From Eledone cirrhosa (lineage: Eukaryota), in assembly GCA_964016885.1 (NCBI GenBank), contig OZ024742.1, forward strand, positions 147,870,001 to 147,934,000: 64,000 bases of DNA. Direction: 5' to 3'. Below the pieces are notes generated by a model. The model was given only the letters and a program-made list of their open reading frames with translations. It searched no databases and was not told the DNA's origin. The position numbers were made by a program, and so were the translations under genes. How positions within the stretch are numbered: the first letter of the stretch is position 1; the number at the start of each line of letters is the position of its first letter. Shown here piece by piece: positions 8,492 through 52,476 of the stretch.

Positions 8492-8606
8492 ATCTCATAT
8501 ATATATATATATATATATATATTTGGATTTAATGCTCTGAAATAGCGATATATATGTGAAGACAAACATAGAATATTCGATATGTAATTCGATATGTATT
8601 GGATAT

Positions 8607-8649
8607 GTAATCCTGAAGATTTCTAAGAAGAATGAAACGCGTAGATTAC
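8607..8649 (+). ncRNA. Minimal type I hammerhead ribozyme motif (Penelope-like element type)
   Basis: GTAATC-CTGAAGA-tTTCTaagaAGAAt-GAAACGCGTA|GATTAC. Stem I is GTAATC/GATTAC, the core is CUGANGA and GAAA, stem III is the palindrome ACGCGT, and the cleavage triplet is GUA. The pair at the base of stem II is U-U rather than canonical. Confidence 0.7.
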
Positions 8650-9090
8650 TTCCCTTACTTTTATCGAGAATCTCAAATTGTAATACGTGACGTATTCTAT
8701 TCTATAGCGATTGGGTCTTCAAAATGTTTATTATAAACATACAGAATATTTTCGAATATTCTATGTTTGTCTTCACACATATATATATATATATATGTTT
8801 GTCTTCACATATGTGTGTGTGAGTGTGAGTGTGAGTGTGTGTGTGTGTGTGTGTGTGTGTGTGTAAAAGGTAAACAGATATAACACAATCGGTAATATAT
8901 GGAAGGGATATATTACGTTAACGCTTGATATAGCAGGAAGAGGGTTTTAATGTTTTGGACGCTAATATATATATATGTATTAGAAGGGAGAGGGGATTGG
9001 CATATAAATAGCATGAGCTGAATTCTGAGGTCCCATATCAAATTATAAGCTTGTACACCATCAATATTATTATATTGTCTTCCACATGGG

Positions 9091-9310
9091 GTGGTGGTTT
9101 AGCGGTATCAGTAGAGAGTCGGACACCATGCTTTGCAGCATAGAGTTATGGTCCTTTATCGTCTGAATTCAAATCCTGCCAAGGTTAACTTTGCCTTTAA
9201 TCCTTACGGGGCCAATAAAATAAAGCACCAGTAATGCACTGGGGTCGATTTAATCGACTTTGCCCTCCCACAAAATTGCTGGCCTTGTGCTTATAGTAGA
9301 CATCATTATA
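9091..9310 (+). mobile_element. SINE family A (long subtype), plus orientation
   Basis: gtggtggtttagcggtatcagtagagagtcggac...ctgaattcaaatcctgcc...ggccttgtgc...attat. Confidence 0.8.
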
Positions 9311-9789
9311 TTGTCTTCCTGGTAATGTGAGCAAATATTTAAAAAAAAATTCTAATCTGTTCTCTACAGGTGTGTGTATGTGCATGTGTGTACACATGTC
9401 GTTTGTAGACTATGTATAGTTAAATGCATGTTTTCAGACATATGTACATATGTGTGTGTGTGTGTCATTTTATTCATAGATTAGGTATATATGTCATTTT
9501 GTTTCAGTCTCCATTTACCATCCACCCCCACATCACCATACTTCAAACGGCAGTACCATTAATATAGCTTAACTCTAGCATCTCTATTTTCTATTAATAA
9601 TAAAAGGTATGAGTACTGTGTGTTTTATTGGACAGTGAGATGGCTGGAATTCAGGGTTTGGTAATTTCTTCTTGGCATGAATCCACTCGACCACAGGTAA
9701 TCAAGCAAATCTTCATTTCAGGCATGGAAAGCTGTCACCAACTCCAATATAGATATCACCTCTCTTTTCAAGTACCCATCCCACTCTTC

Positions 9790-48796: not shown

Positions 48797-49143
48797 GGAG
48801 GCACATGGCTTAGTGGTTAGAGCAATGGCCTTGCAATCGAATGGTTGTGAGTTCAATTCTCAGACCGGGTGATGTGTTGTTTCCTTGAGCAAGACACTTT
48901 ATTTCACATTGCTCCAGTTTACTCAGCTGTAGAAATGGGATGATAGGGACTGGGGTCCATATCATTAAACTGCAAAGTGGTCGTGGAGGTGCCACGGCAA
49001 AAAAGCACCCAGCACTCACTGTAAATGAGGTTGGTGTTAGGAAGGGCATCCAGCTGTAGAAATCAAGCCAGAATCAGTTCCCGTCCCACCCTTGCAAGCA
49101 GCGAAAAGCGGACGTAACATGAAATGATGATGAAATGAAATGA
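48797..49143 (+). mobile_element. SINE family B, full length, adjacent to (TA)n(GA)n
   Basis: A-box tggcttagtgg, B-box gagttcaattc, central ccttgagcaagacact, and an RTE-like 3' tail gttggtgttaggaagggcatccagc...(GAT)n. Confidence 0.9.
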
Positions 49144-52100
49144 TATATATACATACATATAGACGTACATACACATGAATATACATACATACATTTATAC
49201 ACACACACATATATACATATATTGTTATATATATATATATATATATATATATACACATTTACATATACACATAACATTTACATATATATACATACATACA
49301 CATTTACATATATATACATATATACATACACATTTACATATATATACATATATATATATACATATATATATATGTAAGTATGTATATATGTAAATGAAAT
49401 TTCGTTTCATTCTATTCCATATATATATATATATATAATTCAAATAAAGACAAATGTTTAATACGCCTCAATTTTCCAAAGTGATCTATATTCTAGCATA
49501 GATAGAAGAATATATCTGAAATTCGAAGTTAAGAAACAGCACTGCAGCAGCAGAGAGGAACAAATAAACACCATCACACCAAAAAACAAACAATTTTTTT
49601 GTGAATATGATGTATTAGAGGAAAACATACGATGCTATTAATTAACAAAAAAAAAAATTATTGTTAACACACATGATAAAATGCTGTAAACAAACAACTG
49701 AATTTTAAACAGTCATTTTCTTATATATTGTTTACAACGAACTGAATAAGATATTAATATTATTTACATTAAAACAAGAACATAGTAAAAAAAAAAATAC
49801 AGAACAGAAAAACAACATAATTACAATGACTGATTTAAGAAGGAAGGGGGAGAGAACATTTCAGACACTAACTAATCTAAGGGAAACAATTATAACACAA
49901 TTTTATTTTAGAAAAAACTTGTTTTCCTTATCTTTTGATAAAAAAAAAATTATAACAATTTCGAATGTAAAAACATTTTTAACTTACAAACACTTTAGGG
50001 ATAGAAATAGTCAAGTAACTCTACTTCAGTAATTGACTGGTACTTTATTCTATTTGTTCTATTGAATATGGAAGTATGAACAGCAAAGTTGATCTTCACA
50101 AGATTTGGAGTTAGACTAAATGGTATTTGTTGGTCGTTCTACCGATTCTACCTTTCTGATGGATTCTTCCTATCTTTCATATCTGTAGATTTCTTTAATA
50201 ATGAATGTCATCATGCAATAATTGTTTTTAATTATTAAAACTAATACTAGCTGTTTTTTCTGCTTGGTAGGTTTGGAGAAAGGGGCAATACCCATAGTCC
50301 TCTGAGACTGGGAAGATATTGAAGATATTGGTTATTGATATTGAGTATTGATTATCAATGCAGGCTAACACAGAAATAAATTGTGACATTCTGAGAAAAA
50401 TCAGACAAAAAACAAATAATGGTTTCTGATTTAGGCACAAAGCCAACAATTTTTTAGGGAGGGGGAAAGTTGATTAAATCGCCCCTAGTGCATTACTGGT
50501 GCTTTATTTTATTGATCCAGTAAAGATGAAAGGCAAAGCTAACCTTGATGGGATTTGAAAGCACACCACAACCTAGAACATGGTATATATAGGCAATAGA
50601 ATTATCCATTCAATAGCTTCACCAAAAGTTCAATTTAAAAATAATACAATTCCATTTAATTTACTTAATAATAATAATTTAATTTAGTAAAGATTTTCCT
50701 TTTGATTTTTAACTTGGTAGATCTGAAGGAAGGGGCAGTGTTCATGGTCTTCACAGACTAAAACTACTAACACTTACGCAAGCTGAAGATTAAGTAAGTA
50801 ATCCCTATTTGTTAGATTAATAGCAACAGGTTTCTTGAACAGTGCAGGCTGTAAGCACAAGTCCCTCTCTCGAAACAAAATCATTAAAAAAAGTTGTTGT
50901 TTTTGATGATGATAATGAGGATGATAATATCAATTGTGAACATGTGTATAATACTGGAAAGTCTCAAAGACTCCCTATCAGTTTGTAAGTTAATGTTTTG
51001 ATAGAGGAAATGAACAGATAAATAACATGCTTGACTGATTAAATAGAAACCAGTACAGTTCTAGAACTAAACATCATATTCTTTAATCATTGTTGATGTA
51101 AATAATATGCAAAAATGAACACATTTCAATATTAGAAAAAATTAAATAAAATCAAAAAATCAAACTATTTAAAAATCTTCAGCTTTAGATTAATTAGAAT
51201 AATTAATTGAAGAATATTATTCTCTTGCTATTTTAATCACAAATGGAATATCAATAATGATACAGCAACATTAGAATTTTGTTGTTTTTTCTGTTTAGTA
51301 AGGACGTGAAAGACAGTAACCATACCCCTTTTCAGAACCTCAGATTGATGTGAGGTAGGCCCAAATTCCTTCATTAGAGTGAATTCTGTTTAATCTTTAG
51401 TATGTTCGAAATTTTTATGAATTGCTTCCCTTGACACTGCATTATGTATTAAGGGGAGATTACTCTATTGGCGAGATCATGTACCTGTAGTGTCCAGAAG
51501 CTTAAGGCACCTAAAGGCCAAATGGCAGTGTTGAACTAGATGACAGATTAAGTCTATCACCCAAATAGACCACAGCAGGATTTCAACTCAGAACACAAAG
51601 ATCCAGAAGAAATACCACAAGATATTTTGTCTGACACACTAACAATTCCTTCAATCCATTAAAAGGATGAAAGACGAAGTTGACCTCAGTGGTATTTGAA
51701 CACTAAGTACAGACAGCTGGAAGAAATACTGCAAGGCATTTTGTCCTATACTCTAACAACTGCCAATTTGATGTCTTATAAAGCTTGAGTACATATGTTT
51801 AACTGTGTGAAAAAAAAAAAGAACTTCAAATAACTATTTCTTTATTACTTTATATTACTTAGGTGGTAATCTTAATTGAGGACTTACTTGTATAATTGTT
51901 AATTTTCTCTTACAAGTAATAATCAGCTTAGCAACATTTGAACATTATTCTATGTACTATACATGCATTTTTGATGAGTTGTAGTGCACCTGAGCACTGT
52001 ACACAATAATTTTCATTACATTATCATCATCCTCCTGCTGGCATGAGTTGGACTGGTCATTAAAGACAAGGTCAGTACCTAATCATAGCTACAGTCCCCC

Positions 52101-52270
52101 AGGACAGGCCAGAGGACGATTTCTCTCACTCAATACATTCCACCAATAAATGATTCCTCTTTTAGTGGTATAAAATTGTAACATATATATTTTTAATTAA
52201 TAATGTAATTACTCATAAAAATATATTTTAATATATACACACACATATACATACATATATATATATATAT

Positions 52271-52476
52271 ATAGGAACAAGTAAGACCCCGACGGCTGAG
52301 CTCAAGCCGTTTCGACGGCTAATTCTGTACTGAATTCAGTACAGAATTAGCCGTCGAAACGGCTTGAGCTCAGCCGTCGGGGTCTTACTTGTTCCTATTA
52401 CCCACTCTACTACCCTAAGTATTGAGTACTTTGGTGCGTTATGGTCCACCTGGTTCCTTACCACATTTCCTTCGTT
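52271..52476 (+). mobile_element. Fold-back insertion in (TA)n with a 128-bp perfect palindrome and the 3' half of a hammerhead; probable PLE terminal-repeat fragment
   Basis: Arms 52271-52334 and 52335-52398 are exact reverse complements. The right arm contains GAAACGGCT-tgagctc-AGCCGTC|GGGGTC. Confidence 0.65.

Follow-up and report, generated by a model that had tools for sequence, protein, structure and literature searches.

Why should inverted repeats of different sequence lie, time after time, against the edge of a (TA)n tract? The question was raised by a 64,000-nucleotide stretch of the Eledone cirrhosa genome (assembly GCA_964016885.1, contig OZ024742.1, positions 147,870,001 to 147,934,000, forward strand), which is referred to here as the window. 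An earlier inspection of the letters, made without database searches (the sequence-only reading), had described the arrangement at 8555-8777, 15788-15857, 42491-42744 and 52271-52398, with an imperfect case at 12063-12170. It had attributed the pattern to a microsatellite-targeted, fold-back-generating retroelement system driven by Penelope-like elements (PLEs). Our analysis indicated that these TA-flanked inverted repeats are very probably insertions of PLEs and of short non-coding elements with the same architecture, and that the inverted arm likely comes from two-ended priming at a cut, self-complementary (TA)n tract.

All five structures were recovered at these positions. The first (family C) had arms of 33 nt at 97% identity (8548-8580 and 8752-8784), which were the earlier 26-nt arms plus TA. 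The arms of the second (family D, 15788-15809 and 15836-15857) were 22 nt long and 100% identical. The structure at 42491-42744 (family B) could be written either as 100-nt arms at 95% identity or as a palindromic alignment of 256 columns at 92%, 52271-52398 (family A) was a perfect palindrome of 128 nt, and the arms within 12063-12170 (family E) were imperfect, with 35 of 45 columns identical. A TA run adjoined at least one outer end in every case. When the five units were compared with one another, no similarity was found at E ≤ 0.01; therefore, the recurring pattern stood as first described, in unrelated sequences.

Its association with (TA)n was assessed in the window plus 200 kb on each side, a neighbourhood sample of 464,000 bases in which coordinates beyond the window are counted in window numbering. 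The sample contained 73 inverted repeats (arms of at least 20 nt, at least 80% identity and a span of no more than 1000 nt) and 347 (TA)≥5 tracts, the latter making up 1.81% of the sequence. Contact, defined as an outer end no more than 3 nt from such a tract, was observed for 16 of the 73 repeats, against 2.93 ± 1.71 contacts (maximum 10) in 2000 random relocations. The association exceeded chance and was statistically sound, and the enrichment of inverted-repeat ends at (TA)n that had been proposed as a check was confirmed in the 464 kb around the window. Contact was two-sided in only 1 of the 16 repeats and one-sided in the rest. An analysis of 6-mers enriched beside (TA)n tracts was dominated by degenerate TA/CA microsatellite, and no terminal motif emerged from it. 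A TTGTTC-like 3' end motif was noticed in several families by eye only and was not used as evidence. Inverted repeats without a TA flank were also present in the window (4244-4277, 11073-11587, 27825-27860, 37675-37731, 56939-57669, 57293-57579 and 57656-57903).

Copies of family A (52274-52475) were searched for in the E. cirrhosa genome itself (3.0 Gb); the totals given here and below are candidate copies, and those with "at least" are lower bounds. Family A was found to be a 205-nt dispersed element with at least 617 candidate copies. In the window, a (TA)n flank (52250-52273) is followed on the plus strand by a perfect palindrome of 122 nt (52274-52395), a one-sided tail of 80 nt (52396-52475) and a (TA)110 tract (52476-52695, delimited by TRF). 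All 40 scored places matched at 93-100% identity, and the whole query was covered in 39 of them. Fifteen loci were fetched. The palindrome was preceded by (TA)n in all 15, and in 14 it was followed by a tail of 77-80 nt and then (TA)n; the fifteenth was a head-to-head pair with a diverged copy. Since the palindrome occurs with the same tail and flanks across loci, it is an inherited part of the 205-nt unit and was not remade at each site. The two ends of this unit are not inverted repeats of each other. A second family A copy, a variant with a different palindrome centre and a solo 55-nt arm ending at (TA)n (242036-242090) were also found in the 464-kb sample.

At 252011-255274 lies a 3.26-kb element whose inverted terminal repeats (157 nt at 99% identity, or 185 nt at 96%) proved to consist of a single family A arm and adjoining sequence. 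The family A tail was present only at the right (3') end of this element, and the strand that terminates 3' in this tail carries two open reading frames (ORFs). The ORF of 428 aa contains a YRDD box; its alignment with the reverse transcriptase (RT) of this genome's canonical PLE runs from motif C through the thumb, at 25% identity (E 3e-6). In the ORF of 279 aa, a VIY...YIG stretch was co-linear with the PLE GIY-YIG domain at E 0.15. A Pfam scan of these Hydra-like ORFs gave no match. A protein database search with the RT ORF returned 1574 proteins at E ≤ 0.001 among candidates of 235-749 aa, and the best 120 of the 1574 were mostly about 600-730 aa long. The parent ORFs were aligned with four of these relatives. 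The alignment contained RWK (or RWV/RWT), DKT/DKS, a CxCX5C linker, CxxC before a conserved E, and N followed by CxH, and the GIY-YIG domains, judged by eye, lacked the CCHH cysteines. The parent itself reads SDKT where the relatives read ADKT or ADKS. Its RWK site and N-terminus are decayed, and a frameshift separates the RT from the endonuclease (EN). The genome search and locus comparison showed family A to be a short derivative of this Hydra-like element, composed of the inverted terminal repeats, now a perfect palindrome, and the 80-nt 3' tail. This link to a coding parent shows how PLEs can shed short hairpin derivatives. Hydra-like RT/EN remnants numbered 9 in the 464 kb and canonical ones 3. 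One Hydra-like copy, at 238725-241872, which is among the few with flanking inverted repeats preserved at (TA)n, carried a canonical hammerhead in each arm.

Family C showed PLE-type scars in a non-coding tandem repeat. Its main form was a tandem array with a period of 312 (for example, ten matches 310-312 nt apart on one contig), with at least 633 candidate copies in the genome. The unit is 312 nt long, has 34% GC and contains no stop-free stretch longer than 56 aa. The window copy (8523-8810) begins after a (TA)13 tract (8497-8522; TRF and sequence) with an inverted, 5'-truncated copy of the 3' end on the minus strand (8523-8580), including the 27-nt tail; monomer positions 252-311 matched 8580-8521 at 100%. 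A junction made of a 12-nt unit repeated 3.2 times (8575-8611, TRF) leads to a direct, 5'-truncated copy on the plus strand (8596-8784; monomer 96-284 at 98.9%), which ends at the short, tail-less 3' end. This is followed by (TA)n, a repeat of the element's final 13 nt, and (TG)n (8785-8864; TRF and sequence). The same tail terminates arrays at other loci.

The layout was regular among copies elsewhere. Among 150 matches listed, 15 family C arms kept the 3' end and had 15 different internal starts, and in 2 arms the start was kept and the end was lost. Ten of 11 informative independent units were head-to-head, a minus arm followed by a plus arm, with the element 3' end at both outer ends. In 9 of these 10, one side had the short form and the other side had the 27 further bases of the tail. 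About 10 of 13 units were flanked by (TA)n. One unit lay in a non-TA site with a 10-nt target duplication, the sole readable duplication seen (locus L040:1101-1716, G000:C6:58977855-58981039). At another locus (L034:1234-1990), a family C fragment lay between two identical sequences of about 45 nt, which would be an exceptionally long target duplication or else the result of tandem duplication at the locus. A Hydra-like copy beside one family C unit had no sequence in common with that unit.

A minimal type I hammerhead motif was located in the direct arm (8607-8649, plus strand) by our own descriptor scan. In it, CUGAAGA lies between a helix I of 6 bp and a helix II of 4 bp, GAAA comes next, and the place of helix III is taken by a palindromic ACGCGU. 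The Rfam HH9 model scored 20.6 bits here (8598-8663), compared with a gathering score of 52. One motif was found per family C unit, with 30 places near matches in 16 family loci. These data supported the interpretation of 8523-8810 as a solo copy of a 312-nt tandem, hammerhead-bearing, retrozyme-like repeat with PLE-type scars.

Family D resembled family A in having a hairpin at one end. In the window, the hairpin with 22-nt arms (15788-15857) comes right after the TA run and is followed by the body of the element; sequence comparison placed this copy at 15790-15952 on the plus strand, with the last ~65 nt of the unit missing. The unit is roughly 250 nt long and had at least 2241 candidate copies in the genome search. 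Six older copies all consisted of (TA)n, a hairpin with arms of about 22 nt, a body of about 180 nt and (TA)n. Judging from these copies, the hairpin is an inherited feature of family D. A second family had in common with family D only the first 55 nt beside (TA)n.

The last two structures are locus-specific fold-backs of older repeats. The direct part of the family E structure (12019-12107, minus strand, with the sense strand inferred) was identified by genome search as the terminal part of an older dispersed repeat. It has a sharp terminus at 12019, which adjoins a compound TA/CA microsatellite (11679-12017). An inverted copy of 12063-12107 follows at 12127-12170 (plus strand), and then (TA)n at 12171-12192. 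There were 304 candidates, and the matches of the direct part at other loci began at about query positions 1-13 and ended at 70-97. Six short opposite-strand matches to query positions 103-152 were the same stretches, matched through the inverted arm of the window. The matches elsewhere being single-armed, the inverted arm is peculiar to the window. Copies had a common sharp terminus, often beside TA-rich sequence; the ~44 nt at this terminus are present in the direct arm and missing from the inverted one.

Family B (42491-42744, no strand assigned) is likewise peculiar to this locus. Here an internal segment of an old repeat, one whose tail is A-rich, is folded back, and short TA runs mark the limits of the structure. 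Twelve candidates were found, and the 11 other places matched one arm only, at 76-86% identity; these relatives represent a non-palindromic repeat with an A-rich end. Contigs of runs X1-X3 (one sample) crossed the centre of the palindrome (42531-42704) without any difference, which makes an assembler artefact unlikely. The fold-backs at 42491 and 12063 are unique to the locus. The proposal that fold-backs are generated at each insertion was not supported for the palindromes at 52271 and 15788, which were inherited by hundreds of copies.

Across units, the outer ends of the inverted units are element 3' ends, the arms are 5'-truncated to various extents, and a tail occurs on just one of the two sides. 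For families A, C and D, the end of the tail-less arm coincides exactly with a T/A-rich patch. This anatomy suggests the following origin. A GIY-YIG nuclease would cut the (TA)n tract. Such a tract being self-complementary, the 3' ends on both sides of the cut can anneal to a single RNA. One DNA end would prime at the true 3' end of the RNA and give the arm with the tail, and the other would prime at the internal T/A-rich patch just upstream of the tail and give the tail-less inverted arm; the two cDNAs would then be joined. The palindromes of families A and D may have arisen once in this manner and been amplified as units afterwards, and the structures of families B and E may be single events of the same kind on older repeats.

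Could the two single-copy fold-backs instead be the work of host repair? Under this explanation, a break at a fragile (TA)n would be followed by snap-back and fill-in, with no retroelement enzyme involved. In its favour, both fold-backs are unique to the locus, with single-armed relatives that are 76-89% identical, and the A-rich-tailed repeat behind family B has no PLE feature. Snap-back, however, would place TA at the centre, whereas the TA runs here are external and both centres consist of unique sequence. In addition, the layout of family E, an inverted arm minus the terminal ~44 nt and a direct arm with the terminus, is that of families A and C. For these reasons, we consider host repair improbable for 42491-42744 and 12063-12170.

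Also very unlikely is the view that the units are miniature inverted-repeat transposable elements (MITEs) of a TA-targeting cut-and-paste transposon of the Tc1/mariner-Stowaway type, with the arms as terminal inverted repeats and the TA flank as target duplication. The palindromic shape and the TA flanks are what such elements would show, and a TA duplication would be invisible within (TA)n. However, families A and D are asymmetric, with a hairpin at one end and a tail of 80-180 nt at the other, and their unit ends are therefore not inverted repeats. The long relative of family A encodes an RT and a GIY-YIG domain and no transposase. Family C forms a truncation series and tandem arrays, carries a hammerhead and has a 10-nt duplication at a non-TA site. 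No DDE domain was detected by Pfam among the 99 ORFs of the window. The arms of family A map to an RT/EN-coding parent.

Insertion in AT-rich dinucleotide runs and a hairpin close to a terminus would also fit Helitrons or Helentrons of the non-autonomous type, whose insertion sites are A|T or T|T, yet there is next to no chance that the elements belong here. Their termini are not 5'-TC and CTRR-3'. The hairpins measure 44-122 nt, where about 20 nt would be expected, and are located away from the tail, at the other end of the unit. Family A's parent encodes an RT but no Rep/helicase, and 5'-truncated copies and head-to-head pairs are not Helitron features.

Several observations weigh against the interpretation of the structures as products of PLE-type insertion. 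TA tracts are abundant locally (347 in 464 kb), and because (TA)n is so common here, single TA adjacencies are weak evidence. Just one of the five units had the hammerhead. For families C, D and E, the analysis yielded no autonomous partner. Flanking inverted repeats at (TA)n were kept in only 2 of the 9 Hydra-like copies of the 464 kb, and the parent of family A has no hammerhead by descriptor, although the Hydra clade is reported to carry them throughout. The tails of family A (80 nt) and family D (about 180 nt) exceed the published 30-40 bp, and target duplications are unreadable inside (TA)n. The relatives of family B end A-rich like long or short interspersed elements (LINEs or SINEs), and its arms end at a repeat-internal point; given this A-rich tail, the repeat behind 42491 is not obviously a PLE. 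Finally, we infer two-ended priming and the internal start solely from anatomy (the tail asymmetry in 9 of 10 units and the three patches). Proximity did not link the families to RT copies either: 8 RT/EN matches in 67 family loci of ~3 kb were judged indistinguishable from 9 copies per 464 kb.

A bolder proposal, which we offer tentatively and regard as doubtful at present, concerns the ribozyme-free mini-elements with a hairpin plus a tail (A, 205 nt and at least 617 candidates; D, about 250 nt and at least 2241). They might constitute a distinct non-autonomous passenger class of Hydra-clade PLEs, born by two-ended priming on one RNA from an internal T/A patch and spread as hairpin-forming RNAs. 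They would then scatter long perfect hairpins, possible small-RNA precursors, over the genome.

Two PLE types were encountered. By similarity searches, the genome was shown to contain thousands of candidate copies predicted to be either canonical or Hydra-like PLEs, both with an RT followed by a C-terminal GIY-YIG domain, and (TA)n directly adjoins the ends of full copies of either type. A decayed PLE RT had been reported at 13310-14578. It is real, at 13749-14531 on the plus strand, and corresponds to aa 158-422 of an 811-aa ORF of a canonical PLE with a C-terminal GIY-YIG (tblastn, E 2e-35). At least 2167 candidate relatives of one remnant ORF were found in the genome. The 811-aa ORF comprises an RT, a CX4CxxC linker and a GIY-YIG-like C-terminus. 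Homologues of this ORF carry RVT_1 and GIY-YIG; among them, P0017 scored 25.0 bits for GIY-YIG (cut-off 22.6) and 29.4 bits for RVT_1 (cut-off 29.6). All three long canonical copies (3/3) ended directly at (TA)n, and all three had a minimal hammerhead core, CUGAAGA...GAAACGUC, about 130 nt upstream of the 3' end. A search for pseudo-LTRs (long terminal repeats of PLEs) at locus L052 was swamped by microsatellites, and none was shown. The Pfam scan of the 99 window ORFs gave no match at the PLE remnant. The sole match was to RVT_1 (42 bits) at 26757-27227 on the plus strand, the only window ORF above the Pfam RT threshold.

No link was found between the canonical family and the five inverted repeats. 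In outline, the idea of a PLE-type system held: the arms of family A are the termini of an element with an RT and a GIY-YIG domain. That parent is Hydra-like, and the RT remnant that had been cited is of the canonical type and was not shown to be the driver. A comparison of the arms with PLE termini and hammerhead models, which the sequence-only reading had suggested, was answered in part. It succeeded for the arms of family A and for the hammerhead of family C, but no coding partner was found for families C, D and E.

The hammerhead descriptor gave 28 matches (22 distinct) in the 464 kb, compared with 0-2 per shuffle in 20 shuffles. Twelve of the 22 distinct hammerheads lay no more than 45 nt from a (TA)≥5 tract. 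Of the 16 inverted repeats that touch TA, 4 contained a hammerhead. In the descriptor scan, hammerheads were present in family C and in the canonical copies and absent from families A, B, D and E; the scan of the family A parent (locus L123) gave no match. Two of the cases had been said to carry hammerhead motifs. Only that at 8607-8649 did, as the 52271 palindrome has GAAAC-stem-GUC and lacks the CUGANGA box. Among the five units, the one ribozyme-bearing non-coding repeat found is family C. At the gathering threshold, neither the window nor the four family C loci scanned gave an Rfam hammerhead match. Permissive Rfam scans returned a single weak HH9 match and otherwise generic microRNA-like hairpin matches. 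Another minimal hammerhead family recurred in the 464 kb (for example, at window coordinates -54177, 117072, 133363, 192628, 238901 and 241600); its helix I has 8 bp, its helix III stretch is near-palindromic, and its distance from (TA)n is usually 31-43 nt.

Other repeats were noted in the window. A fold-back of ~500 nt (11073-11587) has arms of 200-208 nt at 86% identity and reads like the region downstream of a LINE RT; it has no TA flank and is therefore a different kind of inverted duplication. Nested fold-backs without TA flanks lie at 56939-57903, with 99-nt arms at 96% around 119-nt arms at 99%, and beside them is a pair of 93-nt arms at 89%; these are possibly foldback- or MITE-type DNA elements. 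Two short near-perfect palindromes (37675-37731, 57 nt at 98%; 27825-27860, 36 nt at 94%) also have no TA flanks. Stretches resembling tRNA (Rfam tRNA, 23.6-31.1 bits) were found at 8425-8482 (minus), 15232-15289 (plus), 24564-24621 (minus) and about 42752-42830 (plus). They resemble the heads of tRNA-derived SINEs; one adjoins the TA run by family C and another adjoins fold-back B. At two further loci (L060 and L003), different short elements pile up in one (TA)n downstream of the matched elements (a D and then an A variant; two A variants in tandem), and TA microsatellites appear to serve as repeated landing sites.

For annotation, these results explain a frequent and puzzling pattern in a 3-Gb animal genome. 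They also caution annotators against taking such hairpins, which are retroelement products, for MITEs or microRNA genes; the microRNA-like Rfam matches were sub-threshold. They further constrain PLE integration, in that the outer ends are element 3' ends, the tail is one-sided and an internal T/A patch marks the end of the tail-less arm. The overall biology is already published, as PMC8557442 describes (TA)n targeting, inverted 5'-truncated copies and one-sided tails. Two points are mildly new: a Hydra-like element has short palindromic derivatives that lack a ribozyme, and the tail-less arm starts at a regular position. Searches of the PLE literature returned no paper on hairpin-type short PLE derivatives among the top 7 and top 15 results, which is weak evidence of absence.

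How do these elements compare with known systems? The Hydra clade is characterized by an RT with GIY-YIG, a DKG to DKT change, RWK, a CxCX5C linker, the absence of CCHH, and CxxC and CxH around a conserved E and N; almost all its families insert into (TA)n, canonical hammerheads occur throughout, and the quoted length is 3 kb (PMC8557442). The listed motifs, the short length and the (TA)n insertion were all found in the 3.26-kb parent of family A or in its ~700-aa relatives, and the parent is called Hydra-like on the strength of these motifs. It differs in being slightly longer than 3 kb and in having no canonical hammerhead; the copy at 238725-241872 has one per arm.

For PLEs more widely, the same source reports that Naiad and Hydra PLEs are biased towards (TA)n; it also describes truncation at the 5' end, partial tandems, a tail of 30-40 bp at either end and, beside the 5' end, a 5'-truncated copy in inverted orientation (PMC8557442). 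Its authors state there that the integration mechanism is unknown (Craig, Yushenova, Rodriguez, Arkhipova 2021), and inverted pseudo-LTRs and short 3' extensions are mentioned in a curation guide (PMC8969392). The elements studied here lie in (TA)n, as the claim of microsatellite targeting had it, and their inverted repeats fit this published architecture. They are alike in 5' truncation, partial tandems, the inverted copy on the 5' side, the one-sided tail and the lack of a readable target duplication in microsatellites. They differ in tail length (27 nt in C, 80 nt in A and about 180 nt in D, versus 30-40 bp) and in that the inverted structure is fixed in a short unit in families A and D, with hundreds to thousands of candidate copies.

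Metazoan non-LTR retrozymes are described as non-coding tandem repeats of 150-450 nt with low GC and a type I hammerhead (Cervera and de la Pena 2020, PMC7229834); a preprint served as a further source for this comparison (Li, Clavereau, Pollet 2026, 10.64898/2026.07.22.740005). Family C is alike in being a non-coding 312-nt tandem repeat of 34% GC with one type I hammerhead per unit, in arrays from dimers to many units. Its hammerhead is minimal, with a palindrome replacing helix III, falls below the Rfam threshold, and is of the kind reported for PLEs. Its two-armed inverted insertions in (TA)n are not among the retrozyme features given in the passages compared.

The canonical remnant of the window and its 811-aa relative resemble the Neptune-type canonical EN+ PLEs described in PMC8557442 in the CX4CxxC linker before GIY-YIG, the minimal hammerhead and the (TA)n ends; the assignment to the Neptune type was made by the linker motif only. 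A last comparison is with twin priming of LINE-1, in which one RNA is primed a second time, by a further DNA end, and the resulting copy is inverted and truncated; a 5' inverted segment is then joined to a 3' direct segment. The E. cirrhosa structures differ from this product, as here both arms end in the element 3' end and the target is a self-complementary microsatellite.

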